From NCBI GenBank assembly GCA_029567195.1, contig JAKQLJ010000020.1:3971-67970 (forward strand): a stretch of DNA of 64,000 bases, given 5' to 3'. Numbering within the stretch: position 1 is the stretch's first letter; each line of letters opens with the position of its first letter. Origin of the DNA: a bacterium (GTDB lineage: Bacteria; Patescibacteriota; Minisyncoccia; Moranbacterales; UBA2206). The position numbers were made by a program, and so were the translations under genes. Of this stretch, positions 9,277 through 50,105 are shown in pieces. Below the pieces are notes generated by a model that saw nothing but the letters and a program-made list of their open reading frames with translations, was not told where the DNA came from and did not search any database.

Positions 9277-10204
9277 AAAAATCATTTCTATCATCACTCC
9301 GGTTTATAATGAGGAAAAAAATATCCCCATTTTTTATGCGGAGCTTCAAAAAGTTGTTAACTCTATGGATAAGTATGATTTTGAACTGATTTTTGTAAAT
9401 GACGGCAGTCGGGACAAAAGCCTGGAAGAATTAAGAAAAATGGAAAAGGAAGATGAAAGAGTGATGGTTATTGACTTGTCTCGAAACTTCGGCAAAGAAA
9501 TTGCCACCACTGCCGGAATAAACCATTGTCGGGGTGAAGCCTGTATTATGCTTGATAGCGATCTCCAACACCCGGTGGAAAAAATTCCTGAATTTGTTTC
9601 CAAGTGGGAAAATGGAGCGGAAGTGGTTATAGGAGTGCGAAAGAAAAATAATGGGGAAGGATTAGTGAAAAAAATGGGATCATTTTTCTTTTATAAAATC
9701 ATCAATCGCATATCGGATACTAAAGTTATGTCTAATGCCACTGATTATCGCCTTTTGGACAGGATGGTGATAAATGAGTTCAATAAGTTAACGGAAAAAA
9801 ACCGGATGACAAGAGCGCTTATCGATTGGCTGGGCTTCAAAAGAGAATATATTTATTTTGAGGCCAGGCCTAGAATTCATGGGGAAGCCGGATATAGTTT
9901 TTGGAAGCTAATGAGGCTGGCTTTTAACAGCATGATTTCGCTCAGCATTTTTCCTCTTCGTATTGCCGGATATCTGGGCATTATTATTACCATTTTTTCG
10001 GGCGTTTTGGGCTTATTTATTTTTATAACCAACTATGTGACAGAGAGTCTTGATTTTTCTGGTCCGGCTATTTTGGCGGTAGTGATTCTTTTTCTTATCG
10101 GCATTGTCCTTATTTGCCTCGGACTCATTGCGCTCTATATCGCTAACATCCATTCGGAAGTAAACAATCGGCCGCTTTATGTTGTGAGAAGATCCAGAAA
10201 GTAG
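9266..10204 (+). CDS. GT2 polyprenyl-phosphate glycosyltransferase (GtrB/ArnC/DPM1-like)
   Basis: ISIITPVYNEEKNI...IFVNDGSRDKS...LDSDLQHP, plus two C-terminal TM helices. The start is moved to the ATG at 9266 (MEDKK) rather than the overlapping 9230. Confidence 0.75.
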   Translation: MEDKKIISIITPVYNEEKNIPIFYAELQKVVNSMDKYDFELIFVNDGSRDKSLEELRKMEKEDERVMVIDLSRNFGKEIATTAGINHCRGEACIMLDSDLQHPVEKIPEFVSKWENGAEVVIGVRKKNNGEGLVKKMGSFFFYKIINRISDTKVMSNATDYRLLDRMVINEFNKLTEKNRMTRALIDWLGFKREYIYFEARPRIHGEAGYSFWKLMRLAFNSMISLSIFPLRIAGYLGIIITIFSGVLGLFIFITNYVTESLDFSGPAILAVVILFLIGIVLICLGLIALYIANIHSEVNNRPLYVVRRSRK

Positions 10205-10219
10205 CTTAGACCAACTTTC

Positions 10220-11203
10220 ATGATTAAATACAGTTTTATAATTCCTGTTAAGGAAATAAACGATTATATTCGGGAGTCCATCCCGAAGATTTTGGAAATT
10301 TCCCGGGAGGATTATGAAATAATAATATATCCTGACAATGAGAGCTCGGAATCATGGCCAAAGACAAGGCAAATTGCCAGCGGTCCGGGAGGGCCGGCGA
10401 TGAAAAGGGGGCTGGCAATGAGAGACGCGTTGGGGGATTTTTTGATTTTTATAGACGACGATGCTTTTCCCGAAAATGACATATTAGAAAAGTTAGACGG
10501 CGATTTTTCTGATGAGAAAATAGCGGCCGTCGGCGGTCCGGCAATTACGCCTAGGAATAACAGTTTTTTACAGAAAGTTTCCGGCGGGGTTTATCTGAGC
10601 AATTTAGGAGGAAATTTTCCGGAAAGATATTGCTCTATTGGCAAAAAGAGATTGGTCAGCGACTGGCCAACCGTAAATTTATCTGTTCGAAAAAAAGTTT
10701 TTTTGGAAGTAGGCGGTTTTGACTGCAGTTTTTGGCCGGGAGAGGATACAAAATTCTGTCTGGATATAATCAACAAGCTTGAAAAAAACAACAAGATTCT
10801 CTATGACCCGGAAATTATAGTTTGGCATCATCGAAGAGAGGGGCTGTTGAGGCATCTGAAACAAGTTGCCGGCTATGGTATTCATCGGGGTTTTTTCGCT
10901 AAAAAATATCCTAAAACCTCTTTTAAATTCCGATATTTTGTGCCAAGTTTTTTCTTTTTGTTTGTGGCTTTCGGCTGGCTGACAGTTTTTCTTTCTCCTT
11001 GGATTTTTAAACTTTATCTTTTTGGTTGGATTATATACGGTCTGGCTCTGGTTAAGGTTTTTTTTGATATCACTCGGCGCCAGAAAAATGTTTTAGTCGC
11101 TCTTTATTCTCTGGTTTATGTTTTTTTCACGCATTTGGTTTATGGAGCCAGATTTATACAAGGATTTTTTTATACTAAAGAATTAAAAAGTAAGCTTAGA
11201 TAA
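10220..11203 (+). CDS. Glycosyltransferase family 2 with C-terminal membrane anchor
   Basis: SFIIPVKEIN...IFIDDDAFPEND (DxD), then hydrophobic C-terminal helices. Confidence 0.7.
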   Translation: MIKYSFIIPVKEINDYIRESIPKILEISREDYEIIIYPDNESSESWPKTRQIASGPGGPAMKRGLAMRDALGDFLIFIDDDAFPENDILEKLDGDFSDEKIAAVGGPAITPRNNSFLQKVSGGVYLSNLGGNFPERYCSIGKKRLVSDWPTVNLSVRKKVFLEVGGFDCSFWPGEDTKFCLDIINKLEKNNKILYDPEIIVWHHRREGLLRHLKQVAGYGIHRGFFAKKYPKTSFKFRYFVPSFFFLFVAFGWLTVFLSPWIFKLYLFGWIIYGLALVKVFFDITRRQKNVLVALYSLVYVFFTHLVYGARFIQGFFYTKELKSKLR

Positions 11204-11206
11204 TTT

Positions 11207-12874
11207 ATGGCTGATCAAAATATGCCCGCCAAAGGCGGGTCCGCCTTTGGCGGAAAAATTTCAATTTCTTACCCTCCTTTGGAATCGGAAAAAGGCGTAG
11301 CGTGCCTGAGTCAAAATCGCCAGTTTCAATGGTTTGCCCATCCGACTTACATTTATCCGGTCATTCCGGCTTATGCCGCGTCGCTGTTGGCCAAAAACGG
11401 TTACCAGGTTTTTTGGGATGACGCTATTGCAGAGGAGCTGACTTATGATCAATGGAAAGAAAGAATAATGCGGGAAAAGCCGGACGTCATTGCTATAGAA
11501 ACCAAAACGCCGGTCGTAAAGATGCACTGGAGGATAATTGATGAGATAAAAAAAGAATTGTCGAATTTCTCCCTCCCCTCTGTCCCTTCGGGACATCTCC
11601 CCTCGGGCAAGGGAGAAGGCAATGGATGGAAGCCAATCTTTGTTTTGATGGGGGATCATGTGACAGCGCGCCCTGAAGAATCGCTCAAGAATTGCCAGGT
11701 AGATTATGTAATGGCTTCAGGTGACTACGATTTTATGCTTTTAAATCTAGCCAATCATTTGAGTAAAAACGAACCGCTTGAAGGAGGATTTTGGTATAGA
11801 AAAAGTTGTCATTCCCGGACCTACCTGCCAGAAAGGCAGGAAAGCGGTAATTTAGAGACTGGATCCCCAATCAAGTCGGGGATGACAAATTCAGAAATAA
11901 CTTCTGAATTTGTCAATTCCGGTCCATCAGACATTTCCAAACACAATCTTGACACATTGCCTATAATTGACCGGAAACTCACCAGATGGAAGATGTATGC
12001 TTACAAAAACGGCAATTTCAAATATACTCCCGGCGCTTATATGATGAGCGGCCGCGATTGCTGGTGGGGAAAATGCACTTTTTGTTCCTGGACAACTTTT
12101 TTTCCAGGGGAAAAATTTCGCACTATGTCTGCCCAAAAGGCGCTGGAAGAAGTGGAAAATCTTATCCGGCTGGGAGTGAAAGAAATTATGGAAGACAGCG
12201 GATCTTTGCCGATTGGAAAATGGCTCGATGATTTTTGCAAGGGAATGATTGATAGGGGTTACAATAAAAAAGTGACCATCAGTTGCAATATGCGGATTAC
12301 CGGCATAAAAAAATTGGAAACATGGAAAATGATGAAAAAGGCGGGTTTTAGATTCATCCTTTTCGGTCTGGAATCGGCCAATCAGGAAACTCTGGACAAA
12401 ATCAACAAAAATCTCAAAGTCGAAGAGATTGAGCCGGGACTCAAGATGTGTAAATCCGGAGGGCTCGAACCGCATATAACGGCGATGATCGGCTATCCTT
12501 GGGAAACAAAAGAAATGGCCCAAAAAACGATTGATTTGGCTAAAGATTTATTTAAAAAAGGTTATGTTGATACGCTCCAAGGAACGATTGTCATTCCTTA
12601 CCCCGGAACGCCGCTTTATAAGTATTGCGAAGAAAATAATATGCTTCTGACCCGCGATTATGATCATTTTGACCAGCGAGAAATGGTTATGAAATCATCC
12701 TTATCGTCAGCTGACGCCAAAGAGATGGTCCAGGGCCTTTATAAATCATTCATGAGCCCGCAGTTTATCTGGCGGAAAATAACTTCTATCAGAAGTTTTG
12801 CCGATATCAAGTTTCTTTTTATGGCCGGCTGGAAATGGCTGGGTAAGATGACGGATTTTCACTCTGTCAAATAA
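11207..12874 (+). CDS. Cobalamin (B12)-binding domain radical SAM protein carrying three in-frame GC-rich hairpin insertions
   Basis: N-terminal B12-binding-like region, radical SAM cluster motif DCWWGKCTFC (Cx4Cx2C) and TIM-barrel motifs (ILFGLESANQETLD). Paralogous to 21544-23076. Confidence 0.7.
   Translation: MADQNMPAKGGSAFGGKISISYPPLESEKGVACLSQNRQFQWFAHPTYIYPVIPAYAASLLAKNGYQVFWDDAIAEELTYDQWKERIMREKPDVIAIETKTPVVKMHWRIIDEIKKELSNFSLPSVPSGHLPSGKGEGNGWKPIFVLMGDHVTARPEESLKNCQVDYVMASGDYDFMLLNLANHLSKNEPLEGGFWYRKSCHSRTYLPERQESGNLETGSPIKSGMTNSEITSEFVNSGPSDISKHNLDTLPIIDRKLTRWKMYAYKNGNFKYTPGAYMMSGRDCWWGKCTFCSWTTFFPGEKFRTMSAQKALEEVENLIRLGVKEIMEDSGSLPIGKWLDDFCKGMIDRGYNKKVTISCNMRITGIKKLETWKMMKKAGFRFILFGLESANQETLDKINKNLKVEEIEPGLKMCKSGGLEPHITAMIGYPWETKEMAQKTIDLAKDLFKKGYVDTLQGTIVIPYPGTPLYKYCEENNMLLTRDYDHFDQREMVMKSSLSSADAKEMVQGLYKSFMSPQFIWRKITSIRSFADIKFLFMAGWKWLGKMTDFHSVK
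11223..11258. repeat. GC-rich near-perfect palindrome inside the 5' end of the radical SAM CDS (gcccgccaaaggcgggtccgcctttggcgg)
   Basis: cccgccaaaggcggg and ccgcctttggcgg are mutually complementary hairpins. They encode PAKGGSAFGG in-frame. Confidence 0.45.
11566..11625. repeat. In-frame GC-rich double hairpin (gtcccttcgggac / tctcccctcgggcaagggaga) within the radical SAM CDS
   Basis: Two stem-loops of 5-6 bp stems. The local GC is far above the surrounding coding sequence. It encodes LPSVPSGHLPSGKGEG. Confidence 0.4.
11805..11890. repeat. In-frame palindromic mobile-element copy (ttgtcattcccgg...ctggatccccaatcaagtcggggatgacaa) inside the radical SAM CDS
   Basis: It shares its termini (ttgtcattccc / ggggatgacaa) and the ccccaatcaagtcgggg hairpin with the 1187-1310 element. 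It translates as SCHSRTYLPERQESGNLETGSPIKSGMTNS without a stop. Confidence 0.6.
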
Positions 12875-12889
12875 GACTTGAGTTTGTTG

Positions 12890-12975
12890 ATCCATTCAAC
12901 ATTAATTCGTCATCCTGAATTTGATTCAGGATCTTCTAATAAACCTGCCTACCGGACAGGCAGGCAAGTTCAGCA
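12890..12975. terminator. Pair of hairpins between convergent genes (atcctgaat-ttg-attcaggat; cctgcc-taccggaca-ggcagg), putative bidirectional terminator
   Basis: A 9-bp and a 6-bp stem sit in the 125-bp gap between the stop of the + strand rSAM gene (12874) and the stop of the - strand TPR gene (13000). The second hairpin is related to the gcctaccggcaggcagg repeat core. Confidence 0.4.
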
Positions 12976-12999
12976 TAACAAAAAAATAAACAAGCCCTG

Positions 13000-14739
13000 T
13001 TACTTGGTAGAGTTTAACTTTGATTCAATTATCTTTAAATTTCCCTGAATATTCGGGTCGTTAGGATTTGTCTCCGCGGCTTTTTTTATCATCTCATATG
13101 ACTTTTGGTAATTGCCTCGTTCAAAATAAATGGCGGCTATGTTTTGATAACTTTGCCAAAGGTTGGGATTTATGGAAACGGCCTTTTGATAGCTTTCCAA
13201 CGCTTCCTCAATTTTTCCCATTTCTATATATGTATTGCCTAGATTATGGTAAGCATCGGCATAGTTGGGATTAATTTCAACGGCTTTTTTAAATTCTTCA
13301 ACCGCTTTTTCATAATTTTTCTGCCGGCCGTAAACGTCACCCAAATTATTATGAATATTTTGTCCGGAAGGAGAGGTTTTGGCGGTGGCAAGCCAAAGCG
13401 TATCTTCATTTTGCCAATCCATATTTCTGACGATGGTCCTTGCAGAAAGCAAAACAATTAGAATGGCAAAAACGGAATAAATAATATTTTTTCGGTTGCT
13501 GTATTTTTCAATCAGCCAGTTGAAAAACAGGGCGATAACCACAAATATTCCCAAGGATCCGAGGTAAACATATCGTTCGGCGACTATCCAGGAAATTTTG
13601 AAAGGTGTCAGGGTGGGGGAAAGAGTGATGATGAAAAAGGATAGCCAAAAGAAAACGGCTTTGTTTTTTTTCCAGCCGTAAAATATAAAAGCCAAAAACA
13701 GAAAAAATACCGACAAAAAAATAATATATTGGAAAGTGCTAAAAAACATCTCTGTTTGGTAAAGGCTTAATTTATCCGGCCAGAAAATTAATTTAAGATA
13801 AGAAGAAGTGGCTATTGGAATCTGGACAAATAGGTTGATTGACTGAGTGTCTTGATAGGTAGTTGATTCCAAATCGGCTATCCTGCCACCAATCCTGGCG
13901 GCATACATGATAATTAAAAGCAAACTCATCGAGAAGAAAGGGATAATTTTTTTCCAATTATCTTTCAATTTTCCGGCTGAAATTTCATAAACGAAAAGAA
14001 TAGCAAAAAAAACCATCGATTTTTCAGAAGACAAAAGGGAAAAGGCAAAGGCTAAAACCGCTACCCAGTATATTTTTTTGTTTTCTCCAGAAATAAGATA
14101 AAGGAAAAAGGAAAGAAGGAGAAAAAAGCCGTATTGGGAATACGGTCCGCCGGAGATCCATGTTATAGATTCTGCCATAATGGGATGAATGGCGAAAAGC
14201 AAAGAAGCAAAAATGGCAATCAATTTTTTATTGGTCAAGAAGTTTAGTATGGCAAAAGCCAAGAAAGACGATCCAAGATGAAAAGCGATATTGATTACAC
14301 GGAAAAAGGCTGGATTCAGACCGCCGAGGTGAAAAGAAAAAAAATATAAAATATTTCTCACCGATCCTACCAGTGATTGCGTTAGGGCAAAGGTAAAATC
14401 TCCCACTCGGGGATTTTTTGAAATAAGCTGAACGTCATCGGAAACAAAGCCATTATCAAAAGCATTAAAATAAACTAAAAAAATAGATAGGGATAACATA
14501 ATCAATATATTTATGTTATCAGCGATAAATTCTTTAAAATTGAAATTCGAATCTTTCAAAAAAGGCTTATTAGATGGGTTTTTGGCAATGAAGGAGTTGT
14601 ATTTTTCCTTAGGCCAATGAGTTTTGATGTAGCGGAGAACTTCACCTTCCGGCAAATCCAAGTCCCTCCTTATCTTTTCCAAAGAGAGTCTTTTGATATT
14701 TTTCTTGATGTAATGCTTTTGGCTGGATGTCAGAGACAT
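13000..14739 (-). CDS. Membrane protein with C-terminal TPR repeats (TMTC/PMT-like putative glycosyltransferase)
   Basis: An N-terminal cytoplasmic segment is followed by ~10 TM helices. The C-terminal ~140 aa contain three or four TPR units (AYHNLGNTYIEMGKIEEALESYQKAVSINPN...). Confidence 0.6.
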   Translation of the reverse strand: MSLTSSQKHYIKKNIKRLSLEKIRRDLDLPEGEVLRYIKTHWPKEKYNSFIAKNPSNKPFLKDSNFNFKEFIADNINILIMLSLSIFLVYFNAFDNGFVSDDVQLISKNPRVGDFTFALTQSLVGSVRNILYFFSFHLGGLNPAFFRVINIAFHLGSSFLAFAILNFLTNKKLIAIFASLLFAIHPIMAESITWISGGPYSQYGFFLLLSFFLYLISGENKKIYWVAVLAFAFSLLSSEKSMVFFAILFVYEISAGKLKDNWKKIIPFFSMSLLLIIMYAARIGGRIADLESTTYQDTQSINLFVQIPIATSSYLKLIFWPDKLSLYQTEMFFSTFQYIIFLSVFFLFLAFIFYGWKKNKAVFFWLSFFIITLSPTLTPFKISWIVAERYVYLGSLGIFVVIALFFNWLIEKYSNRKNIIYSVFAILIVLLSARTIVRNMDWQNEDTLWLATAKTSPSGQNIHNNLGDVYGRQKNYEKAVEEFKKAVEINPNYADAYHNLGNTYIEMGKIEEALESYQKAVSINPNLWQSYQNIAAIYFERGNYQKSYEMIKKAAETNPNDPNIQGNLKIIESKLNSTK

Positions 14740-14802
14740 AAGAGTGTTGTTTATTTAATACTATTATATTATGATTTAAAAGTAAATTGATAAAAACAAA
14801 AA

Positions 14803-15300
14803 ATGAATCTTTTTGTCCATCTTTTAATTCACATTTTGTTCGGCCTTCTGGCCGGATTTATTGTTTGGAGAATTTGGAAAAAAATAATTCTGTCTTTTTT
14901 TTCGGCTCTTCTTTCCGGGGTAGCAGTGGATTTTGATCATCTAATTGATTATTTTCTCGTTTTTGGCGCTGATTTCCGGCTGGATTATTTCATAAACGGC
15001 TATTCTTTTTTAAAAAGCGACAAAATTTACGTTTTGTTTCACGGCTGGGAATATGTTATCATAGGGGCGGCGCTGGCGTTAATTTTGGAAAATAAAACAG
15101 CAAAAACAATTTTTTTGGCACTGTCTTTAGGGCTATTTTTTCATTTAAGTGCCGATGTTTTTATTGATAATTTGCCGGTGAAATCTTATTCCTTGCTTTA
15201 TCGGGCTAAAAATAATTTTGATTCTCAAAAATTGCTTTATCCCGATCATTGGCAAAAACACCTGAGGCAAAAAGGGGAGCTAATTTTAATTAAAGAATAA
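14803..15300 (+). CDS. Small inner-membrane protein, DUF457/YdjM-like putative metal-dependent hydrolase
   Basis: 165 aa with four hydrophobic segments and conserved His/Asp motifs ([23 protein letters not shown]). Confidence 0.4.
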
Positions 15301-15301
15301 A

Positions 15302-16273
15302 ATGATTGATAATAAATCCGCTTATGGCGGAAAAAAAATATTAGTAACAGGCGGAGCAGGTTTTATCGGGTCGCATTTATGCCGAAGACTTTTGGAAGAG
15401 GGGAATGAAGTTTTGTGCGTGGATAATTTTTTTACCGGCAACAAAAAAAACATCCTGGATTTAACGGAAAACAAAAAATTCGAATTTATGCGTCACGATG
15501 TGACTTTTCCCCTTTATGTTGAAGTGGATCAGATTTATAACTTGGCTTGTCCGGCTTCGCCTATTCATTATCAGTTTGATCCGGTTCAAACCACCAAAAC
15601 TTCGGTTCACGGAGCAATCAATATGCTGGGGCTGGCCAAGAGGACAAAAGCCACAATTCTTCAGGCTTCCACTTCTGAAGTTTACGGGGATCCGGAAATT
15701 CATCCTCAAGTGGAATCATATTGGGGACGGGTAAATCCTATCGGTATTCGCTCCTGCTATGATGAAGGAAAGAGATGTGCCGAAACCTTGTTTTTTGACT
15801 ATTGGCGCCAGCATAAATTGCCGATACGAGTTATTAGAATTTTTAACACTTACGGTCCTAATATGCACCCTCGGGACGGCCGGGTGGTTTCTAATTTTAT
15901 TGTCCAAGCCCTTAAAAATGAAGACATAACCATTTATGGCGACGGATCGCAAACCAGAAGTTTTCAGTATGTTGATGATCTTATTAGTGGCATGATAAAA
16001 ATGATGGACAATAAGGAAAATTTTACTGGTCCGGTAAACATCGGTAACCCGCATGAATTTACCATAAAGGAACTGGCGGAAAAAGTTTTGAAGATGATTC
16101 CGGAAAGCAAAAGCCGGATTATCTACAACGATCTTCCGCAAGATGATCCGAAAAAGAGACAGCCGGATATAACTCTGGCCAAGGAAAAACTCGATTGGGA
16201 GCCAAAAATACAGCTGGAGGAAGGGCTTAAAAAAACAATCGGATATTTCAACAGTATAAAGAGTGAATTATAA
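15302..16273 (+). CDS. uxs: UDP-glucuronate decarboxylase (UDP-xylose synthase)
   Basis: [24 protein letters not shown], the YDEGKR catalytic Tyr/Lys and [22 protein letters not shown] are near-canonical UXS/ArnA-C-terminal-domain motifs. Confidence 0.85.
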
Positions 16274-16291
16274 ATTTAATATTGAATTTTT

Positions 16292-17299
16292 ATGAAACAA
16301 AAATTTTCATTACCCTTGGTTAATGCTCATACTCATCTGGCGATGATTGCCTTTCGGGGAAAAGCGGAAGACTTACCGCTCGAAAAATGGCTGGAGGAGA
16401 ATATCTGGCCGGCAGAAAGTAAATTTGTCCGTCCGAAATTTGTTTATGAAAATTCCAAAAAAGCGATAAGGGAAATGCGCAAAAACGGGATTGAATTTTT
16501 TTTGGATATGTATTTTTTTGAAGACGAAGTGGCCAGGGCGGCCAGGGAACTGAAAATGAAGGCGGTAATCGGGGAGGCGATGCTTGATTTTCCTACTCCC
16601 AGTGCCAAAAATTTCGATGAAAGCATTGTTATTACTGAGAAATTATTAAAAAAATACAAAAAAGATCCTTTTGTTAAAGTGGCGGTTTCTCCCCACTCTA
16701 TTTATACGGTATCAAAAGAAAACCTGATAAGAGCTAAAAAATTGGCCCGGCAGTATAATGCCATTTATCATATTCATGTAGCGGAAACGAAGTATGAAGT
16801 GGAGGAGTGTCTTAAGAATAATAAAATGGCGCCGATTGAGTATCTGGATAAGATCGGGGTGTTGGATGAAAAAACGATTATGGCTCATTGCGTTTGGCTC
16901 ACTGACAAAGAAATAAACATAATAGCCAAACGAAAAGCGAAGGTTGTCCATTGCCCTTTGAGCAATCTAAAACTCGGGTCAGGCATTGCTCCAATAGCCA
17001 AATTAAGAGAAAAGGGGGTGGCGGTGGCTCTGGGAACCGATGGCGCGGCCAGCTCGAATAGGCTTGATATCTGGGAGGCAGGCAAATTCGCTGCTCTCCT
17101 TCAAAAAGGCATAAGTCATGATCCGACTAAAATTCCAGCCAGAGAGGCTGTTTACATGATGACAATAGCCGGAATGGAAGCCCTGGGAATAGACAGCATT
17201 AAGGGCGTTTCGCTTTCCAATTGGAAGAAAAAATTTCAAAAAATGAAGGATTTTAGTTATCTTTACGAACTTAACTCGGAAAAAATTAAATTTTGGTAA
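16292..17299 (+). CDS. Amidohydrolase family protein (MtaD/chlorohydrolase-like deaminase), short form
   Basis: LVNAHTHLAMIAFRG metal-binding HxH motif, HIHVAETKYE and ALGTDGAASSNRLD. At 335 aa it is about 100 aa shorter than typical family members. Confidence 0.6.
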   Translation: MKQKFSLPLVNAHTHLAMIAFRGKAEDLPLEKWLEENIWPAESKFVRPKFVYENSKKAIREMRKNGIEFFLDMYFFEDEVARAARELKMKAVIGEAMLDFPTPSAKNFDESIVITEKLLKKYKKDPFVKVAVSPHSIYTVSKENLIRAKKLARQYNAIYHIHVAETKYEVEECLKNNKMAPIEYLDKIGVLDEKTIMAHCVWLTDKEINIIAKRKAKVVHCPLSNLKLGSGIAPIAKLREKGVAVALGTDGAASSNRLDIWEAGKFAALLQKGISHDPTKIPAREAVYMMTIAGMEALGIDSIKGVSLSNWKKKFQKMKDFSYLYELNSEKIKFW

Positions 17300-17303
17300 A
17301 TTT

Positions 17304-18119
17304 ATGGAACGTCCTCTTGTTTCCGTTATTATAACCACCAGAAACGAAGAAAAAAATATCGGCAACTGTCTGGAATCAATAAAAAAACAAAAGTATCCAA
17401 CGGAACTTTTGGAAATCATTGTTGTGGATAACAATTCAGAGGACAAGACAAAGGAGACAGCCTTAAAATATACGGATAAGTTTTTTAATAAGGGACCGGA
17501 ACGCAGTGCGCAAAGAAATTATGGGGTGGAAAAATCAAGCGGGGAATATTTTATTTATCTTGATGCCGATATGGTGATGAATGAGAATGTTATTGATCAT
17601 TCGATAGAAAAGATTAAAAGCAATCCGGAAATAGTCGCTCTTTATATCACGGAAATTGTTACCGGAAAAAAGTTTTGGAGCAAAGTCCGAAGGTTTGAGC
17701 GGAGTTTTTATGACGGAACGGTCATTGATTGCGTTCGGTTTATAAAAAAAGACAAATTTCTGGAAGTCGGGGGATTTGACGAGAAACTGACTGGTCCTGA
17801 AGATTGGGATTTGGATAAAAAATTGAGAAATATTGGGAAAACCGTTCTTTTGAAAACCCCTATTTATCATAATGAGGCAGAATTTAATATAAGAAAATAT
17901 CTTAGTAAAAAAGGATATTACGCTCAAAATTTTAATGCCTATATTGCCAAATGGGGGAAAGATGACCCGGACGTCAGCAAGCAATTTGGATTTTTTTATC
18001 GATTTTTCAGTGTTTTTTTAGAAAGAGGAAAATGGAAAAAAATTATTTTTCATCCTATTCTAACACTGGGGATGTATTTGCTTAGATTTTTGGTAGGGAT
18101 AAAATTTTTGTTTCGTTAG
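17304..18119 (+). CDS. Glycosyltransferase family 2
   Basis: VSVIITTRNEEKNI...IVVDNNSEDKT...YLDADMV (DxD). Confidence 0.7.
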   Translation: MERPLVSVIITTRNEEKNIGNCLESIKKQKYPTELLEIIVVDNNSEDKTKETALKYTDKFFNKGPERSAQRNYGVEKSSGEYFIYLDADMVMNENVIDHSIEKIKSNPEIVALYITEIVTGKKFWSKVRRFERSFYDGTVIDCVRFIKKDKFLEVGGFDEKLTGPEDWDLDKKLRNIGKTVLLKTPIYHNEAEFNIRKYLSKKGYYAQNFNAYIAKWGKDDPDVSKQFGFFYRFFSVFLERGKWKKIIFHPILTLGMYLLRFLVGIKFLFR

Positions 18120-18129
18120 ATTTAAATAA

Positions 18130-18165
18130 TTGATAAAGAGGCTGAAAATATGCTATATTGGGTTA
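18130..18165 (+). promoter_or_regulatory. Candidate sigma70-type promoter (TTGATA - 18 nt - TGcTATATT extended -10)
   Basis: Located in the 108-bp gap upstream of the gene starting at 18228. The hexamers are read directly from the sequence. Confidence 0.35.
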
Positions 18166-18227
18166 AGTTATCTTTGCGAAAACAAGGATATGTTTTTTGA
18201 TTAATTAATTAAAAATTCACAAAAAAA

Positions 18228-19274
18228 ATGAAAAAAATGCTTGTTACTGGATCAGGGGGGCTTATTGGATCAGAATCCGTCCGATTTTTTTCGGAAAAAG
18301 GATTTGAAATTCATGGAATCGACAATAATATGCGGGCTTATTTTTTTGGGAAAGATGCCAGCACAGAATGGAGCGTAAAAGAACTCAAAAAAAATATTCC
18401 TAATTATGTTCACCATGATGTTGATATTCGGAACAAGGAAGGGATTGAAAAAATATTTAAAAAATATAAATTTGATCTTATAGTTCATACTGCTGCTCAA
18501 CCGTCTCATGATTGGGCGGCCAGAGAACCATACACTGATTTTGAAGTCAATGCTCACGGGACATTAGTTATGCTGGAAAACTTCAGAAATTATTGTCCGA
18601 AAGCGGTTTTTATTTTTACTTCTACTAATAAAGTTTATGGTGATACTCCCAACATCTTGCCTATAGTGGAACTAGAAAGTCGTTTTGAGATTGATGTTCG
18701 TCATCCTTTTTATAAGGGAATAGATGAAAGTATGAGCATTGATCATTCTAAGCATAGTATTTTTGGAGCTTCTAAATGTGCGGCGGATATAATGGTTCAG
18801 GAATATGGACGTTATTTTAATTTAAAAACAGCTGTTTTTAGGGGAGGTTGCCTAACAGGCCCTAACCACAGCGGAGCAGAACTTCATGGATTTTTAGCCT
18901 ATCTTGGCAAATGTATTGCTACTGGCAAACAATATACAATTTTTGGTTATAAAGGAAAGCAAGTCCGGGATAATATTCACTCCTATGATTTGGTTAATGC
19001 TTTTTGGCATTTTTACAAAAAACCGCGAATAGCGGAAGTTTACAATATGGGTGGTGGACGTCATTCTAATATTTCCATGAAGGAGGCGATAGAAAAATTT
19101 GAAAAAATTACCGGGAAAAAAGCAAATATAAAATATATCAAGCAAAACCGAATTGGAGATCATATCTGGTATATAAGTGATGTATCTAAATTTCAAAGGC
19201 ATTATCCGAAATGGAATTTTAAATATGGAATTGATGACATTATGCATGAGATTTGTAAGTACGGTCATTTCTAA
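18228..19274 (+). CDS. NAD-dependent epimerase, CDP-paratose/tyvelose 2-epimerase-like
   Basis: [34 protein letters not shown] and NMGGG...[10 protein letters not shown] resemble RfbE/Tyv-family motifs ([19 protein letters not shown]). Confidence 0.6.
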
Positions 19275-19283
19275 GTAAATTTT

Positions 19284-20360
19284 ATGAATTATAAAACCAT
19301 TCTTATAACCGGTGGAGCGGGATTCGTCGGATCAAATCTGGCGCTAAAGCTAAAAAAACAATATCCGGACGTAAAGATTATCTCTCTGGACAATTTGATG
19401 CGGCGCGGTTCAGAGCTCAATCTGTCAAGATTGAAAAATGCCGGGGTGGAATTTATCCATGGCGATATCAGAAACAAGGAGGATCTGCTCAATTTAAAGG
19501 ATAAAATAGAATTGATAATTGAATGTTCGGCCGAACCGTCCGTTCTTGCCGGCACAGAAGGATCGCCGGAATATGTCATTAATACCAATTTAATTGGAAC
19601 ATATAACTGTCTGGAGCTGGCCAGAAAAGACAGGGCGGATGTGGTTTTTATGTCAACCAGCCGGATTTATCCGGTGGATGGAATTGCCAAACTCAATTTT
19701 ATTGAAGAGGAAACAAGGTTTTCCATTGCTCCTGAACAAAGCGTGCCGGGAGCAGCGCCCAAGGGGTTTTCAGAGGAATTTCCCCTGGGGAAAAACCGTT
19801 CTTTTTATGGAATGACGAAGCTTTGCTCGGAGTTTTTAATTAACGAATACGCGGCGGCTTATGGCATAAAGGCGGTTATCAACCGGTGCAGCGTGATTAC
19901 CGGTCCGTGGCAAATGGGGAAAATTGATCAGGGGGTGGCGGTTCTCTGGGTAGCCAGGCATATTTGGGCTAATAAGCACCTTTCTTATATTGGTTATGGC
20001 GGGTCTGGAAAACAAGTGCGTGATTTTATCCATATTGACGATATTTTTGATGTGATAAAGACAGAAATGGAAGATATGGAAAAGCACAATGGGGAAATTT
20101 ATAATATCGGTGGCGGACTGGAAAACAGTTTATCTCTTTTGGAGATGACCAAGATTTGTCAGGAAATTACCGGTCATAAACTGGAGATCGGATCAATTGC
20201 CCAAGACAGGCCTAACGATGTAAAATCATATATCACCGATTTTAGTAAATTTGAAAAATCTACCGGCTGGAAACCTAAAAAAAATGTAAAAGAAACATTG
20301 ACTGATGTCCATCAGTGGATTATGGAGAATAAGGAACAACTGGAGAGCATCTTAAATTAA
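19284..20360 (+). CDS. NAD-dependent epimerase, CDP-paratose/tyvelose 2-epimerase-like (paralog of 18228-19274)
   Basis: ILITGGAGFVGSNLA, GSGKQVRDFIHIDD, NIGGGLENSLSLLEMTKI and a KSYITDFSKFEKSTGWKPK tail. Confidence 0.65.
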   Translation: MNYKTILITGGAGFVGSNLALKLKKQYPDVKIISLDNLMRRGSELNLSRLKNAGVEFIHGDIRNKEDLLNLKDKIELIIECSAEPSVLAGTEGSPEYVINTNLIGTYNCLELARKDRADVVFMSTSRIYPVDGIAKLNFIEEETRFSIAPEQSVPGAAPKGFSEEFPLGKNRSFYGMTKLCSEFLINEYAAAYGIKAVINRCSVITGPWQMGKIDQGVAVLWVARHIWANKHLSYIGYGGSGKQVRDFIHIDDIFDVIKTEMEDMEKHNGEIYNIGGGLENSLSLLEMTKICQEITGHKLEIGSIAQDRPNDVKSYITDFSKFEKSTGWKPKKNVKETLTDVHQWIMENKEQLESILN

Positions 20361-21520
20361 TGAAAAAAATTCTTTTTTTAAACCACAATCAGGAAAATTT
20401 TGGCACTTATTATCGTTGCCTTTTTTTGGGGAAAAACCTGGCCAAGAGAGGGCACAGGATTACTATGCTCTGCGCTTCAGGTAAAAAGTTTGATCTTTTG
20501 GTGCGCCGAAAAAAGATAAGTGAAAATTTTACTATTATTACTTTACCCCGCATAAAATACCACGAATATTTTACCGGTCAGATTATTTTCCGCTTGCCGT
20601 TGGCTCTCTTTTTTGTTCTTTTTTCTCACTATGACATCTGCCATGCTTTTACCGTAGCCCAGCCGCAAATTGCTGTTCCGGCATGGGTGGCCAAAGTTAT
20701 TCGTCGGAAAAAACTGGTTATCGACTGGGATGATCTCTGGGGCGGAGGATTTGCGGAAGAGCATGGCGGAATTATTTCAAAGGTTCTTGGATTTTCCGAA
20801 AGATATTTTCTTCGCTTTGCTGACAGAATAACCTATGTATCTGAATTTATCGGAGAGCAAATCGAAAAAGTTAAGTTAAAAACGAAAAAAATAAAAATTC
20901 CCAACGGTTCAAACACGGAACAAATTTCTCCTTTAGAAAAAGGAAAAAGCCGTCAAAAATTGGGACTCAAAAACGAAGAAAATTATCTTGTTTCTATCGG
21001 CAATACTTATACTGATAGTCTTGGACTTATGCTTGAAGCTTTCCGGGAAACACTAAAAAAAGAAAAAGTCAAACTTATTATGGTAGGGGAAGGAAAAGTA
21101 ACGGGAAAATTCAAGAAGCTGTTTGACGAACTCAAGGAAAATATAATTGTTACTGGCAAAAGGCCCTTTGGCGAAGTGCCTCTTTATCTTTCCAGCGCCA
21201 ATGTCCTTCTTCTGCCGATGGATGATAACGGTATTGAAAAAGCGCGTTTTCCTATGCGGTTTGGCGATTATCTTTGTGCCAATCGACCGATAATTTCCAA
21301 TGCTGTGGGAGAGGTCGAATATTATATTAAAAAATATAATTGCGGCCTGGCTTCAAGCCCGGCTTCTTCCCAGGAATTTTCCCAAAATATTTCAAAGGCT
21401 TTGAATGACAGGAATTTATCTGATACAATTGGCTTAAATGCCAGGAAATTAGCCGAGGGGGATCTTAATTGGGATAACATCGGGGAAAAGCTGGAAAAAG
21501 AAGTGTATTTTAAAGTCTGA
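20360..21520 (+). CDS. Glycosyltransferase family 4
   Basis: N-terminal KKILFLNHN...GTYYRCLFLGKNLAKRGHRITMLC, and C-terminal GEGKV...E(x7)E-type GT4 motifs. TAATG overlap with the upstream gene. Confidence 0.75.
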   Translation: MKKILFLNHNQENFGTYYRCLFLGKNLAKRGHRITMLCASGKKFDLLVRRKKISENFTIITLPRIKYHEYFTGQIIFRLPLALFFVLFSHYDICHAFTVAQPQIAVPAWVAKVIRRKKLVIDWDDLWGGGFAEEHGGIISKVLGFSERYFLRFADRITYVSEFIGEQIEKVKLKTKKIKIPNGSNTEQISPLEKGKSRQKLGLKNEENYLVSIGNTYTDSLGLMLEAFRETLKKEKVKLIMVGEGKVTGKFKKLFDELKENIIVTGKRPFGEVPLYLSSANVLLLPMDDNGIEKARFPMRFGDYLCANRPIISNAVGEVEYYIKKYNCGLASSPASSQEFSQNISKALNDRNLSDTIGLNARKLAEGDLNWDNIGEKLEKEVYFKV

Positions 21521-21543
21521 GGTATTTTTAATAAATTTTTATT

Positions 21544-23076
21544 ATGAAGATATTATTAGCCAATCCGCCTTATCGAGTTTCTCTTAATGAACGGGAGGAA
21601 CGATTTTTTATTCGTGCCGGATCACGTTGGCCTTTTTCTGTCACTAAGTGCAAAAACGAAAAATCTGAATATATGCCCTTTCCTTTTTATCTAGCTTACA
21701 CTGCCGCCATGCTGGAAAAGGAAAAGGAAAAGGAAGAGGGAATAGAGGTCTTTGTTGAAGATAGCATCGCTCTTAATGAAACGGAGGAAAAATTTCTGGA
21801 AAAAGTCAAAAAAATAAATCCGGATGTTGTTCTTTTTGAAACTTCGACCAACACCATTCGTCATGACATTGGGTTGGCCAAAAAAATCAAGGAGTTTAAT
21901 GGTAATGCCAAGATAGTTATGGCCGGTTTTCATGTAACAGCGCTTGCCAGGGAAACTTTTGATATTTCCGGCCAGGCTATTGATTTCCTGCTGCTTTCTG
22001 AATACGAATTCAATTTTTTAGAGCTTCTAAGAACTTTGAAGAGGGGCGGAGAATGCTCTGGTCTTGAAGGAATTGCTTTTAAAAAAGGGGATGAAATAAT
22101 AATCAATCCGGTAAAATCGCTTCTTGATATTTCCAAATTACCTTACCCTGCCAGACATTTTTTTCCTTCTAACGGAAACAACGATCTAAGTGTTTATTGG
22201 GACGGATTTTGCCAGACAAAGCCGGCAATTCAAATGCATGCTTCCCGCGGTTGTCCTTTTCGTTGTAATTTTTGCGTCTGGAATCAGATAATGTATCGGA
22301 ATGAAAAATACCGCCCTTTCCCGGTAAATTATATTTGCGACGAAATCGAATCAGTCATTAAAGAGTATGGAGCTCGGGAAATATATTTTGACGATGATAC
22401 CTTCACTGGAAACAAAGAACATGTTTTAGATTTTTGCCGGGAGATGATAAAAAGAGGCCTTCATAAAAAAGTTTTCTGGTCGGCTATGGCTGATTTTATG
22501 ATAACGGACGAAGAGATGATAAGGACCATGAAAAAATCCGGCTGCATCGGTTTGAAATTTGGAGTGGAAAGCGGAAATAAGGATATATTAAATCATATTG
22601 GAAAGCCAATTAATTTTAATAAATTAAAAATCAATACTAGTCTTTGCGCCAAGCTGCGCATCAAGACTCATGGCACCTTTACTTTCGGCCTTTCCAGGGA
22701 AACTAGGAAAACCATGGCCGAAACTTTAAATCTTGCCAAATCTATAGATTGTGATAGTGTTCAGTTTAGTATAACCACTCCTTTTCCGGGAACAAGATAT
22801 TATGAGGAATTGAAAAAAGAAGGAAGACTTTTGTCGGAAAAATGGGAAGATTTTGACGGCAACAATAATTGTGTTGTCAAATTCGATGATTTTAACAGTG
22901 AATTCATAGTTGATTTTTATAAAAAAGCCACTGGCCGGTGGTTGAGACACAAATTAAAGCAGCCTCGATGGTTTTGGCGGCAGCTTTATTATCTTAACCG
23001 TTCCCGGTCATGGCAGGGCAACAGTTTTATTTTTAAGCGAATGAGGAGGGCGCTGATTTTGGTTTTAAGCAGATAA
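21544..23076 (+). CDS. Cobalamin (B12)-binding domain radical SAM protein
   Basis: MKILLANPPYR N-terminus, canonical cluster motif SRGCPFRCNFCVW (Cx3Cx2C) and GVESGNKDILNHIGK. Paralog of 11207-12874. Confidence 0.75.
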   Translation: MKILLANPPYRVSLNEREERFFIRAGSRWPFSVTKCKNEKSEYMPFPFYLAYTAAMLEKEKEKEEGIEVFVEDSIALNETEEKFLEKVKKINPDVVLFETSTNTIRHDIGLAKKIKEFNGNAKIVMAGFHVTALARETFDISGQAIDFLLLSEYEFNFLELLRTLKRGGECSGLEGIAFKKGDEIIINPVKSLLDISKLPYPARHFFPSNGNNDLSVYWDGFCQTKPAIQMHASRGCPFRCNFCVWNQIMYRNEKYRPFPVNYICDEIESVIKEYGAREIYFDDDTFTGNKEHVLDFCREMIKRGLHKKVFWSAMADFMITDEEMIRTMKKSGCIGLKFGVESGNKDILNHIGKPINFNKLKINTSLCAKLRIKTHGTFTFGLSRETRKTMAETLNLAKSIDCDSVQFSITTPFPGTRYYEELKKEGRLLSEKWEDFDGNNNCVVKFDDFNSEFIVDFYKKATGRWLRHKLKQPRWFWRQLYYLNRSRSWQGNSFIFKRMRRALILVLSR

Positions 23077-23087
23077 GGAAATAAAAA

Positions 23088-24269
23088 ATGGCAGAAATAA
23101 AAATAAAGCTGATGAAATCGGCTTTTTACAACGAAAAAGAAACCAAGGAGAAGCTGGCCAAATTTGTAATGGAAGCTTCTTTTTTCAGCATGGGCGAACA
23201 ATGTCGAAAGTTTGAGAATGATTTTGCCAAAAAACAAGGTAGAAAATTTGCCGTTTTTCTGACCAGCGGATCAAGTGCCAACCTTGTGCTTATTCAGGGA
23301 TTGCTCAATCTGGGACGGCTCAAGAAAGGCGACAAGGTGGGGTTTTCAGCTCTAACCTGGTCAACTAATGTTATGCCTTTAATTCAGCTGGGACTTATTC
23401 CAGTTCCCTTGGATTGCAGCCTGAAAACGCTTAATGTTTCTCCGGCAGAAGTGGAAAAGAAAGCGGATGATATCAAAGGAATTTTTCTTACTAATACACT
23501 GGGTTTTTCTGATGATATAGAAAAAATCAAGGAAATCTGTCAGAAAAAAAATATTGTTTTTCTGGAAGACAATTGCGAATCGATGGGTTCGGAAGTGAAT
23601 GGAGTGAAGCTGGGAAATTTTTCCTTAGCCTCCACCTTTTCTTTTTTTATCGGTCATCACATGTCCACTATTGAAGGCGGAATGATCCTGACGGACGATT
23701 CAGAACTTTATAATATGCTGCTTATGACCAGGATTCATGGCTGGGATCGGAATTTGCCAGAAGAAGAAAAAAAAAGAATGAGGACCCTTCACGGAATAGA
23801 TGATTTTTATAGCAAATACGCTTTTTATGATTTGGCTTATAATGCCCGGCCGACTGAAATCAATGGCTTTTTGGGAAATTCCCAGCTTCCTTATTGGGAC
23901 GAGATAGTTTTTAAACGCGAAGGCAATTTCAAACTTTTCCAATATGTAGCCAGAAAGAATGACGATTTGTTTTTACTGGATTTTCCTCATATGAACATTA
24001 TTTCTAATTTTGCTTATCCGGTTATTGCTAAAGATAAGGGGAAAGCGGATTTTTATAAACGAAAAATGGAAGAAGCGGGAGTGGAAATAAGGCCGATTAT
24101 CGCCGGAGATATAACCAAGCAGCCTTTTTTCAAGAAATATGTTTCAGAAACGACAACTTGTCCTAATGCTGATTTTATTCATAGTAACGGCTTTTATTTT
24201 GGCAATAATCCGGAAATGAATCAGGGGGAACTGGAAATTTTATGTAACGCGTTGGAAAAGAAACAATAA
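23088..24269 (+). CDS. colD: GDP-4-keto-6-deoxy-D-mannose 3-dehydratase (DegT-family, His-for-Lys ColD/E1 type)
   Basis: LEDNCESMGS, STFSFFIGHHMSTIEGGMILTDDSELYNMLLMTRIHGWDRNLP has His where aminotransferases carry the Schiff-base Lys, and IRPIIAGD. It closely follows the E. coli O55 ColD motif order. Confidence 0.8.
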   Translation: MAEIKIKLMKSAFYNEKETKEKLAKFVMEASFFSMGEQCRKFENDFAKKQGRKFAVFLTSGSSANLVLIQGLLNLGRLKKGDKVGFSALTWSTNVMPLIQLGLIPVPLDCSLKTLNVSPAEVEKKADDIKGIFLTNTLGFSDDIEKIKEICQKKNIVFLEDNCESMGSEVNGVKLGNFSLASTFSFFIGHHMSTIEGGMILTDDSELYNMLLMTRIHGWDRNLPEEEKKRMRTLHGIDDFYSKYAFYDLAYNARPTEINGFLGNSQLPYWDEIVFKREGNFKLFQYVARKNDDLFLLDFPHMNIISNFAYPVIAKDKGKADFYKRKMEEAGVEIRPIIAGDITKQPFFKKYVSETTTCPNADFIHSNGFYFGNNPEMNQGELEILCNALEKKQ

Positions 24270-24301
24270 AAAAATAACTAATACTAATTCGAACACCGAC
24301 T

Positions 24302-25663: not shown

Positions 25664-25665
25664 AA

Positions 25666-34464: not shown

Positions 34465-34468
34465 AAAA

Positions 34469-43952: not shown

Positions 43953-43955
43953 TTT

Positions 43956-45845: not shown

Positions 45846-45849
45846 AAGT

Positions 45850-48219: not shown

Positions 48220-48231
48220 ATCGGATAACGT

Positions 48232-50076: not shown

Positions 50077-50105
50077 AATTATTTTTAATAAAATTAATAA
50101 AATAA

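Follow-up and report, generated by a model that had tools for sequence, protein, structure and literature searches.

We analysed a 64,000-nt stretch of contig JAKQLJ010000020.1 (the window, on which all coordinates are based), which contains a glycan locus of about 50 kb in a metagenome-assembled genome (MAG) of Candidatus Moranbacteria, a lineage of the Patescibacteria or candidate phyla radiation (CPR). This locus holds the genes of two radical S-adenosylmethionine (SAM) enzymes with a B12-type N-terminal domain, which we call rSAM-A and rSAM-B. Both enzyme families are locked to glycosyltransferase (GT) partners of their own and therefore probably modify sugars by radical chemistry. We consider it highly probable that rSAM-A and rSAM-B are enzymes of glycan pathways. 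The fuller reading, that they carry out cobalamin-assisted radical tailoring of envelope glycan precursors, most likely C-methylation, in two separate modules lying side by side, seems to us evenly poised between right and wrong. What we computed directly, and on which these proposals rest, are the domain architecture of the proteins, the conservation of their motifs, the breadth of the two families, synteny and gene fusions.

Two divergent families of radical SAM proteins

A sequence-only reading of this DNA had described two cobalamin-dependent radical SAM paralogues among glycosyltransferases and sugar epimerases, and had suggested that radical chemistry decorates the glycan. Both open reading frames (ORFs), at 11207..12874 and 21544..23076 of the + strand, do encode intact radical SAM proteins of the B12-domain type, as judged from Pfam, AlphaFold2 (AF2) and Foldseek. 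The Pfam Radical_SAM domain (PF04055) scored 60.6 bits in rSAM-A and 61.8 bits in rSAM-B, against a gathering threshold (GA) of 29.5. The Pfam B12-binding domain (PF02310) scored 35.6 bits in rSAM-B, above its GA of 32.1, and is carried by most rSAM-A orthologues according to precomputed annotation. AF2 models built from family alignments, with a predicted local distance difference test (pLDDT) score of 83 for rSAM-A and 94.5 for rSAM-B, show in both cases a partial TIM barrel between a Rossmann-like N-domain and C-terminal helices, those of rSAM-B being basic and amphipathic. When compared to the PDB by Foldseek, both models fall among AprD4, MgmA, OxsB, TsrM, TokK and CysS (E 1e-17 to 1e-24).

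The two proteins share 26% identity (BLASTP, E 3e-36) and their family profiles align end to end, N-domains included (hhalign probability 100%, E 1.9e-60, 444 columns). Judged by their sequences, rSAM-A and rSAM-B are anciently diverged paralogues, each representing its own large orthologous family. The earlier description as paralogues is thus right as regards homology along the whole length, but at 26% identity the pair does not stem from a local duplication.

The search with rSAM-A returned more than 6,000 matches, the best 120 of which are 63-81% identical and come mostly from Moranbacteria, Parcubacteria and other Patescibacteria. Identities of 48-80% extend across CPR bacteria, other anaerobic bacteria and archaea, with carriers that include Elusimicrobia, Nitrospirae, Acidobacteriota, Thermodesulfobacteriota and the cultured Fundidesulfovibrio agrisoli (Desulfovibrionales), as well as, among the archaea, Methanoperedens, Bathyarchaeia and Woesearchaeota. 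In all 120 top homologues the canonical Cx3Cx2C motif is replaced by Cx4Cx2C (CWWG[KR]C[TSA]FC, with CWWGKCTFC in the window), a variant documented for OxsB and GenD1, both cobalamin-dependent (PMC9204698, PMC4340712). Furthermore, four rSAM-A orthologues (P0191, P0215, P0217 and P0226) carry an intein of about 450 aa, with LAGLIDADG/Hint domains, inserted after CWWG[KR]CTF and exactly before the third cysteine, which in the window would lie between F292 and C293 (about nt 12083). An intein placed exactly at the Fe-S motif is a sign of a strongly constrained catalytic site in rSAM-A. The rSAM-B search gave more than 1,800 matches, and the best 120, at 45-77% identity, come from Patescibacteria, Spirochaetes and Elusimicrobia; every one of these 120 has the Cx3Cx2C motif (CPFRCNFC in the window).

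Glycosyltransferase partners of rSAM-A and rSAM-B

In order to study the neighbourhood of rSAM-A, we took 80 of the 204 loci from a scan of GTDB species genomes, all of them at least 48% identical, and counted neighbours by tblastn over the 80 loci and by a best-hit analysis over 75 loci. For rSAM-B, eight loci were gathered by exact-protein look-ups. The embedding of both genes among glycan genes, noted before from the window alone, proved to be conserved across phyla. A GT of family 2 (GT2) of the type found directly upstream of rSAM-A in the window (gene 10220; genes are named by their first coordinate) occurs in 61/80 rSAM-A loci (tblastn), and among the 70 loci with 1.2 kb or more of DNA before rSAM-A, 55 have a GT2 directly upstream of it. 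This arrangement spans Patescibacteria, Elusimicrobia, Nitrospirae, Desulfovibrionales, Acidobacteriota, Methanoperedens, Bathyarchaeia and Woesearchaeota. The rSAM-B orthologue is adjoined by a GT of family 4 (GT4) in seven of its eight loci.

Between 3207 and 41335 nearly all genes of the window lie on the + strand and belong to glycan biosynthesis (GT4s, GT2s, a Wzx-type flippase, short-chain dehydrogenase/reductase (SDR) proteins and a UDP-glucose dehydrogenase). The GT2 genes, assigned by Pfam and NCBIfam, are 9230, 10220 and 17304, the GT4 genes are 20360, 26607 and 28953, and six SDR epimerase/dehydratase genes are found at 7058, 15302, 18228, 19284, 24302 and 25666. The features referred to in the text are the following:

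8008..9276, + strand: Wzx-type flippase (Polysacc_synt, Pfam PF01943, 72.8 bits), frequent in the rSAM-A module
9230..10204, + strand: GT2 of the polyprenyl-phosphate glycosyltransferase type (PgfS/ArnC-like), two C-terminal transmembrane (TM) segments
10220..11203, + strand: GT2 partner of rSAM-A, 2-3 C-terminal TM segments (Pfam GT2 families, TM scan)
11207..12874, + strand: rSAM-A, Rossmann (B12-type) and radical SAM domains, 555 aa (C285, C290, C293, R283, W295)
13000..14739, - strand: polytopic membrane protein with C-terminal TPR repeats, about 10 TM segments (Pfam TPR families)
14803..15300, + strand: small 4-TM protein of the DUF457/YdjM/YbcI membrane metal-hydrolase type
15302..16273, + strand: UDP-glucuronate decarboxylase (UDP-xylose synthase, UXS; 402 bits, E 2e-119 to human UXS1, 2b69)
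16292..17299, + strand: short amidohydrolase of the methylthioadenosine (MTA)/S-adenosylhomocysteine (SAH)/5'-deoxyadenosine deaminase family, 335 aa
17304..18119, + strand: third GT2 of the rSAM-A module, one C-terminal TM segment (Pfam GT2, 90.3 bits)
18228..19274, + strand: CDP-tyvelose-2-epimerase-like SDR (133 bits to 9rl0)
19284..20360, + strand: second CDP-tyvelose-2-epimerase-like SDR (171.6 bits to 9rl0)
20360..21520, + strand: GT4, partner of rSAM-B (Pfam Glycos_transf_1, 66.7 bits)
21544..23076, + strand: rSAM-B, B12-binding and radical SAM domains, 510 aa (C237, C241, C244, R235, W246)
23088..26610, + strand: ColD-like 3-dehydratase, GDP-mannose 4,6-dehydratase (Gmd) and Fcl/ColC-like SDR
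27824..30125, + strand: SPASM radical SAM enzyme (27824; Radical_SAM 79.7 bits, SPASM 51.2 bits) and GT4 (28953), a third radical module
37963..39270, + strand: UDP-glucose 6-dehydrogenase (Ugd; UDPG_MGDP_dh N, central and C domains, 240, 128 and 123 bits)

The GT and epimerase neighbours attributed to the two enzymes are therefore present, and even more numerous than had been described, but rSAM-A is followed by the minus-strand TM and TPR gene and by the small membrane protein before the next SDR gene is reached. The minus-strand gene (13000-14739) interrupts an otherwise co-directional module; its product may be a GT-C-like transferase or a polymerase, and it is found in 13/80 rSAM-A loci, at the same place in two of them (L004 and L006).

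Beyond the adjacent GT2, 36/75 loci have a second GT2, of the 9230 or 37021 type, two genes before rSAM-A (best-hit analysis). Gene 9230 itself scored 234.5 bits for the NCBIfam model PgfS and 154 bits for ArnC, both under cutoff, and a PDB sequence search with GT2 10220 gave nothing informative. The best-hit analysis places a 17304-type GT2 one or two genes after rSAM-A in 45/75 loci, strict tblastn in 26/80, and an 8008-type flippase gene accompanies rSAM-A in 29/80. UXS of the 15302 type, at 50% identity or more, occurs in 11/80 rSAM-A loci. It is 72-73% identical to 15302 in four of the five Desulfovibrionales, Acidobacteriota and Thermodesulfobacteriota loci, the four being those that retain upstream DNA, and in six loci (L009, L011, L019, L023, L044 and L076) Ugd adjoins such a UXS upstream of the GT2-rSAM-A pair. 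Fundidesulfovibrio agrisoli and MAGs of Acidobacteriota and Thermodesulfobacteriota have a recurrent six-gene module, UXS-GT2-GT2-rSAM-A-GT2-SDR, with identities to the genes of the window of 72-73% (UXS), 44% (GT2 9230 type), 43-46% (GT2 10220 type), 52% (rSAM-A), 50-59% (GT2 17304 type) and 64% (SDR 18228 type).

The small membrane protein 14803 has no Pfam match of its own, but nine of its homologues carry PF04307 and one is named YbcI/DUF457, so that 14803 is a divergent member of this family. A gene of this type lies directly downstream of rSAM-A in several CPR loci, and in P0224 (637 aa) the DUF457 membrane protein is fused to the C-terminus of the rSAM-A orthologue. A TM scan showed no TM segments in rSAM-A and C-terminal TM segments in all three GT2s (9230, 10220 and 17304). 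From these combined synteny, TM and fusion data we conclude that rSAM-A is functionally tied to a membrane-anchored GT2 and to a lipid-linked-sugar pathway fed partly from UDP-xylose.

The amidohydrolase 16292 scored 342 bits for NCBIfam PRK09045 and 242 bits for the 5'-deoxyadenosine deaminase model, both under cutoff. It lacks the usual N-terminal residues (about 60), and we considered whether it is a truncated pseudogene; this was dropped, as the protein retains intact HxH, HIHVAE and GTDG motifs and is kept in its short form at the same position in L004, L006 and L090. It is suggestive only, from its family, that the enzyme may scavenge inhibitory by-products of the three radical SAM enzymes.

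Some rSAM-A loci have no GT neighbour. These include L037, L038, L041, L059, L060, L056, L068, L080 and L083, from rumen RGIG, UBP3 and FCPU426 genomes, with an rSAM-A about 50% identical to that of the window. They are flanked by an asparaginyl-tRNA synthetase (AsnRS)-like tRNA synthetase, adenylylsulfate (APS) kinase, a CotH-like protein, a glycoside hydrolase of family 35/42 (GH35/42) or aconitase, and no alternative conserved theme was seen among them.

For rSAM-B, the order amidohydrolase-GT2-SDR-SDR-GT4-rSAM-B of the window is kept in L090, whose rSAM-B orthologue is 77% identical. GT4s of the 20360 type are adjacent in L088 (54%), L090 (60%) and L092 (32%), and tyvelose-epimerase-like SDRs occur in 4/8 rSAM-B loci. 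SDR 18228 is 64% identical to its counterpart in Desulfovibrionales rSAM-A loci and 88% to that in L090, while SDR 19284 is 77% identical in L090 and 47-48% in L089 and L091. Downstream of rSAM-B, the ColD-like 3-dehydratase (226.7 bits to 2gms) and Gmd (TIGR01472, 564 bits, above the cutoff of 415) form, together with the Fcl/ColC-like SDR and going by their annotation, a colitose-type 3,6-dideoxyhexose cassette (23088-26610). This cassette is absent from most rSAM-B orthologue loci. Of the sugar genes around rSAM-B, the upstream SDR pair and GT4 are thus conserved but the downstream DegT/Gmd genes are not, and we dropped the idea that rSAM-B acts on the cassette, which is not conserved with its orthologues. 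The Gmd ORF is extended at its N-terminus by 108 aa, in which no domain stands out (weak DUF4271 match).

One rSAM-B homologue, P0087, matches the full length of rSAM-B at 49% identity and carries a fused N-terminal nucleotidyltransferase. On its groundwater contigs (L084, 201-7243, and L085) it is accompanied by a phosphonopyruvate decarboxylase (456.7 bits, above the cutoff of 312.5), an iron-containing alcohol dehydrogenase, a second B12-domain radical SAM protein and a GT4. In fosfomycin synthesis the cytidylyltransferase Fom1 makes cytidylyl-2-hydroxyethylphosphonate (CMP-HEP), which is then methylated by the class B enzyme Fom3 (PMC8158854, PMC6697681). By analogy, the cluster of P0087 probably represents a Fom1/Fom3-like methylated-phosphonate pathway which decorates a glycan. 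Because tblastn with decarboxylase, alcohol dehydrogenase and nucleotidyltransferase queries found no phosphonate genes in the window, this context is not transferable to rSAM-B itself, and the idea of a nucleotide-linked substrate alone carries over.

Residues that point to cobalamin binding

The Rossmann fold alone is no proof of cobalamin binding, because AprD4 has this fold without cobalamin. The DxHxxG motif was rejected as a test; it is uninformative here because structurally characterised class B enzymes bind cobalamin base-off and without the motif (PMC12931638). More useful are residues with a known role. In TokK, cobalamin is contacted by Arg204, two residues before the first cysteine, and Trp215, at the second position after the third cysteine, is stacked between the cofactors (PMC9204698). 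A profile alignment with six solved structures places these residues at R235 and W246 in rSAM-B and at R283 and W295 in rSAM-A. The Arg is kept in 120/120 homologues of each family and the Trp in 116-117/120, the four exceptions in rSAM-A being the intein-bearing sequences. Among the six structures, the Arg is present in TokK, CysS, MgmA and OxsB, and the Trp in TokK and CysS; AprD4, whose motif is Cx3Cx3C, has Phe and Tyr instead. Sequence alignment further matches the rSAM-B N-domain to the cobalamin domains of TokK (query residues 82-287), OxsB and CysS.

The R-x-C...C-x-W signature would therefore separate the rSAM-A and rSAM-B families from the cobalamin-free AprD4 type and, on the six structures compared, the conserved Arg and Trp together with the N-domain alignment favour real cobalamin binding. 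We regard cobalamin use by the two enzymes as rather probable. Of the earlier claim of cobalamin dependence, the B12-type domain architecture stands, but dependence itself is something we infer, and the best structural match, AprD4, binds no cobalamin.

Proposed mechanism

The substrate of both enzymes is most likely a lipid- or nucleotide-linked sugar. In module A, Ugd would provide UDP-GlcA for UXS, the two together supplying a UDP-pentose, and the membrane-anchored GT2s 9230, 10220 and 17304 would build a lipid-linked sugar of the polyprenyl-phosphate type at the cytoplasmic face of the membrane. There rSAM-A, together with the DUF457-type hydrolase, would use the 5'-deoxyadenosyl radical to abstract a hydrogen from the lipid-linked sugar, and the substrate radical would most likely be quenched by the methyl group of methylcobalamin, giving C-methylation in the manner of GenD1, TokK and Fom3. 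After being flipped by the Wzx-type protein, the product would serve the many GT-C enzymes of the locus as a substrate. The Arn and decaprenyl-phosphate-arabinose pathways likewise modify a lipid-linked monosaccharide before its transfer by GT-C enzymes. In module B, the tyvelose-epimerase-like SDRs would make a modified nucleotide sugar, and rSAM-B would act in a similar way either on that sugar or on what the adjacent GT4 produces.

C-methylation as the outcome remains a tentative choice, to which we would give slightly less than even weight. GenD1 C-methylates C-4'' of a xylose-derived ring (PMC4340712). It is also conceivable, although we hold it to be rather unlikely in this complete form, that the pair of rSAM-A and its GT2, together with the polyprenyl-phosphate GT2, the third GT2, UXS and the DUF457 hydrolase, defines a widespread and so far undescribed pathway in which a lipid-linked envelope sugar, probably a pentose, is C-methylated or rearranged in a cobalamin-dependent manner before flipping and GT-C transfer. 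The earlier suggestion that radical chemistry decorates the glycan draws support from the conserved GT partnerships, but both the reaction and its use of cobalamin are, for now, what we infer.

Points against cobalamin-assisted tailoring, and other explanations

Several results speak against cobalamin-assisted tailoring of glycan precursors. The rSAM-A of the window scores 20.3 bits for the Pfam B12-binding domain, under the GA of 32.1. This sub-threshold score is probably due to two lineage-specific low-complexity insertions (residues ~118-145 and ~200-232), which are disordered (pLDDT <50) and absent from most orthologues (~485-500 aa). AprD4 (6fd2), a cobalamin-independent diol dehydratase, is the best structural and PDB-sequence match, and the Trp of the signature is not universal in cobalamin-dependent methylases, as MgmA has Val. 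Genes for cobalamin transport or salvage are absent from the window, as is a cobalamin riboswitch, and Patescibacteria are generally thought to lack corrinoid synthesis. The association with UXS is confined to about 15-20% of rSAM-A loci, and about 12/80 rSAM-A loci are without any GT neighbour. Finally, neither protein reaches any NCBIfam cutoff, the best model being HpnJ (TIGR03471) with 140 bits for rSAM-A and 217.3 bits for rSAM-B against a cutoff of 577.6, and there is no known product for any member of either family.

One alternative is that the two enzymes resemble AprD4 in function: no cobalamin would be bound, a vicinal diol of the sugar would be dehydrated by radical chemistry and an adjacent SDR would reduce the resulting ketone, as AprD3 does, to give a deoxy sugar. 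The 6fd2 structure is the top Foldseek match for both models (E 4e-19 for rSAM-A and 4e-24 for rSAM-B, TM-score 0.77-0.78 on the target), and AprD4 is the top PDB sequence match for rSAM-B (5e-19 with the single sequence, 4e-29 with the profile). Homologues of AprD4 and ArsL sit in the network of B12-type radical SAM enzymes without binding cobalamin (PMC12931638), SDR genes flank both rSAM-A and rSAM-B, and a mechanism without cobalamin would fit a CPR organism for which no cobalamin supply is visible in the window. Nevertheless, the AprD4 model (NF033070) scores only 32.2 bits in rSAM-A and 83.6 bits in rSAM-B against a cutoff of 500, in the radical SAM domain only and well under the HpnJ, BchE and P-methylase models, AprD4 has neither the Cx3Cx2C or Cx4Cx2C spacing nor the Arg and Trp, cobalamin-contacting in TokK, that both families keep, and the rSAM-B N-domain aligns with the cobalamin domains named above. 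We consider this alternative improbable.

A second alternative, which we think equally unlikely, is a radical rearrangement in the manner of HpnJ, calditol synthase or OxsB, in which a lipid-linked sugar installed by the GT2 would undergo ring contraction or rearrangement to a carbocyclic or branched glycolipid head group. HpnJ is the best curated family for both proteins; it matches only the radical SAM domain of rSAM-A and nearly the full length of rSAM-B, and BchE, P-methylases, ApyD, a ladderane model, HpnR and AprD4 rank after it (for rSAM-A and rSAM-B respectively, BchE 93.6 and 131.2 bits against a cutoff of 481, PhpK 72 and 96 against 600). The gene logic of hopanoid synthesis, with GT2 HpnI, then hydrolase HpnK, then radical SAM enzyme HpnJ (PMC13459092), is equal to that of module A, where a GT2 lies directly upstream of rSAM-A and a membrane metal-hydrolase directly downstream of it or fused to it; moreover, rSAM-A has the Cx4Cx2C motif and the 'CTFC' ending in common with the ring-contracting OxsB. 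However, HpnJ scores far under its cutoff, the window holds no hopanoid (hpn/shc) gene, squalene-hopene cyclase included, OxsB lacks the Trp after the third cysteine that both families keep, and the chemistry of HpnJ has itself been proposed from genetics only (PMC13459092).

The third alternative, a housekeeping role in tRNA, cofactor or membrane-lipid modification with coincidental GT surroundings, in which the conservation and inteins of rSAM-A would reflect an essential non-glycan function, could draw on the unusual conservation of rSAM-A (48-80% across domains of life), on inteins in the Fe-S motif as are typical of core genes, on the 12/80 loci without GT neighbours near AsnRS, APS kinase or aconitase genes, and on weak matches to ladderane-lipid and MnmL tRNA-modification models, but it is strongly disfavoured, and in our view very improbable, because of the synteny (GT2 directly upstream in loci of very distant phyla, with co-linear UXS, GT2 and SDR genes), with the fusion of rSAM-A to a membrane protein of its own module (P0224), family scores that reach no tRNA, cofactor or lipid cutoff, and the lack of another theme in the GT-less loci also standing against it.

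Assignment by profile models, which the sequence-only reading had proposed for placing the two enzymes, thus reached no curated class. HpnR, MgmA, BzaD, TsrM and the other curated class B equivalogs all scored far under their respective NCBIfam cutoffs, and no assignment to an unrelated tRNA, lipid or cofactor subgroup emerged, a result that would have spoken against the sequence-only reading. A published network analysis groups HpnJ with Fom3 and MoeK5, all of which act on sugar- or nucleotide-bearing substrates (PMC9204698). By analogy, this substrate type agrees with the glycan context of rSAM-A and rSAM-B, as an agreement in kind of substrate rather than a test of membership.

Relation to characterised enzymes

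Cobalamin-assisted tailoring by rSAM-A and rSAM-B would have several characterised relatives. TokK, CysS, MgmA and TsrM share the two-domain architecture of a cobalamin-type Rossmann domain and a radical SAM domain (Foldseek E 1e-17 to 1e-20), and in TokK and CysS the R-x-C...C-x-W signature conserved in both families is found as well. These enzymes are, however, only 12-17% identical, act on carbapenems, peptides, methyl-coenzyme M reductase (MCR) or tryptophan rather than on glycans, and have Cx3Cx2C in contrast to the Cx4Cx2C of rSAM-A; TokK and CysS also have large C-terminal domains, whereas rSAM-A and rSAM-B end in short amphipathic helices. AprD4 is alike in acting on a sugar and in its Rossmann-like N-domain, and differs in its secondary-metabolite context and in binding no cobalamin.

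Among HpnJ, Fom3 and MoeK5, the GT2-then-radical-SAM logic of HpnI/HpnJ matches module A, and a likeness to Fom3 is suggested by P0087 in its Fom1/Fom3-like cluster; in contrast to these systems, the window has no hopanoid, phosphonate or moenomycin genes. GenD1 shares the Cx4Cx2C motif and a link to xylose, as rSAM-A recurs with UXS, a likeness by motif and link alone. The CDYSRCTFC of OxsB resembles the CWWGKCTFC of rSAM-A, but OxsB, at 13-14% identity, is a much larger protein with a deoxynucleotide as its substrate. Unlike GenD1 and OxsB, which belong to antibiotic pathways, rSAM-A has its ties to membrane GT2s and to genes for primary envelope glycans.

The enzyme class and radical tailoring of sugars (GenK/GenD1, MoeK5, Fom3, HpnJ, AprD4) are already known. 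What is new are two distinct uncharacterised families in fixed partnership with a membrane GT2 or a GT4 of primary envelope loci, and the breadth of both families across CPR bacteria, other anaerobes and archaea. In the literature that we searched there is no paper linking Patescibacteria, radical SAM enzymes and cobalamin, nor any account of B12-type radical SAM enzymes from O-antigen or envelope glycan loci. The locus had been called atypical of O-antigen loci; it is so in comparison with textbook loci, but with thousands of homologues such an arrangement is common in Patescibacteria and other anaerobes.

Other features of the window and of related loci

The SPASM radical SAM gene at 27824 was found as described. 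With its GT4 (27824-30125) it recurs in L086 (12114-14445; 43% and 31%) near an rSAM-B orthologue, and this GT4 has as its best NCBIfam match TIGR04157 (glyco_rSAM_CFB, 92.7 bits, under cutoff), a family defined by its association with radical SAM proteins. In L087 (Elusimicrobia, GCA_028718185.1, JAQUMH010000006.1), a glycan locus with GT2, GT4, SDR and PMT_2 genes encodes, within 17 kb, five B12-domain radical SAM proteins and one further radical SAM protein.

The segments 30129-36628 and 42366-51647 of the window encode three large membrane proteins with no Pfam match, two of them polytopic (945 and 719 aa) and one of 505 aa with a single TM segment. In addition, the window encodes four to five GT-C (PMT_2) paralogues, an unusually large set of transferases using lipid-linked sugars for one locus. 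A tyrosine recombinase/integrase gene just beyond the glycan locus and an RtcB ORF are found at 56956-57789 and 63017-63952; the RtcB ORF spans only positions 146-424 of a 426-position profile, and is either truncated or has a mis-called start. No tRNA was found in the window.

Implications

So far, almost all characterised cases of radical SAM tailoring of sugars come from antibiotic, hopanoid and archaeal-lipid pathways, and one of the two families described here is among the most conserved genes of envelope glycan loci across CPR bacteria, other anaerobes and archaea. The GT2 and rSAM-A define a minimal testable system, for which Fundidesulfovibrio agrisoli is a cultured carrier.

If the widespread pathway considered above exists, a chemically unusual envelope sugar would be conserved among CPR bacteria, DPANN-type archaea and many anaerobes, and surface assembly in corrinoid-auxotrophic episymbionts would depend on cobalamin scavenged from hosts or neighbours. 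If cobalamin dependence is true, it would give a concrete reason for a corrinoid need of the genome-reduced Patescibacteria and would point to a conserved unusual sugar on their surface, which would be relevant to the recognition between episymbiont and host.

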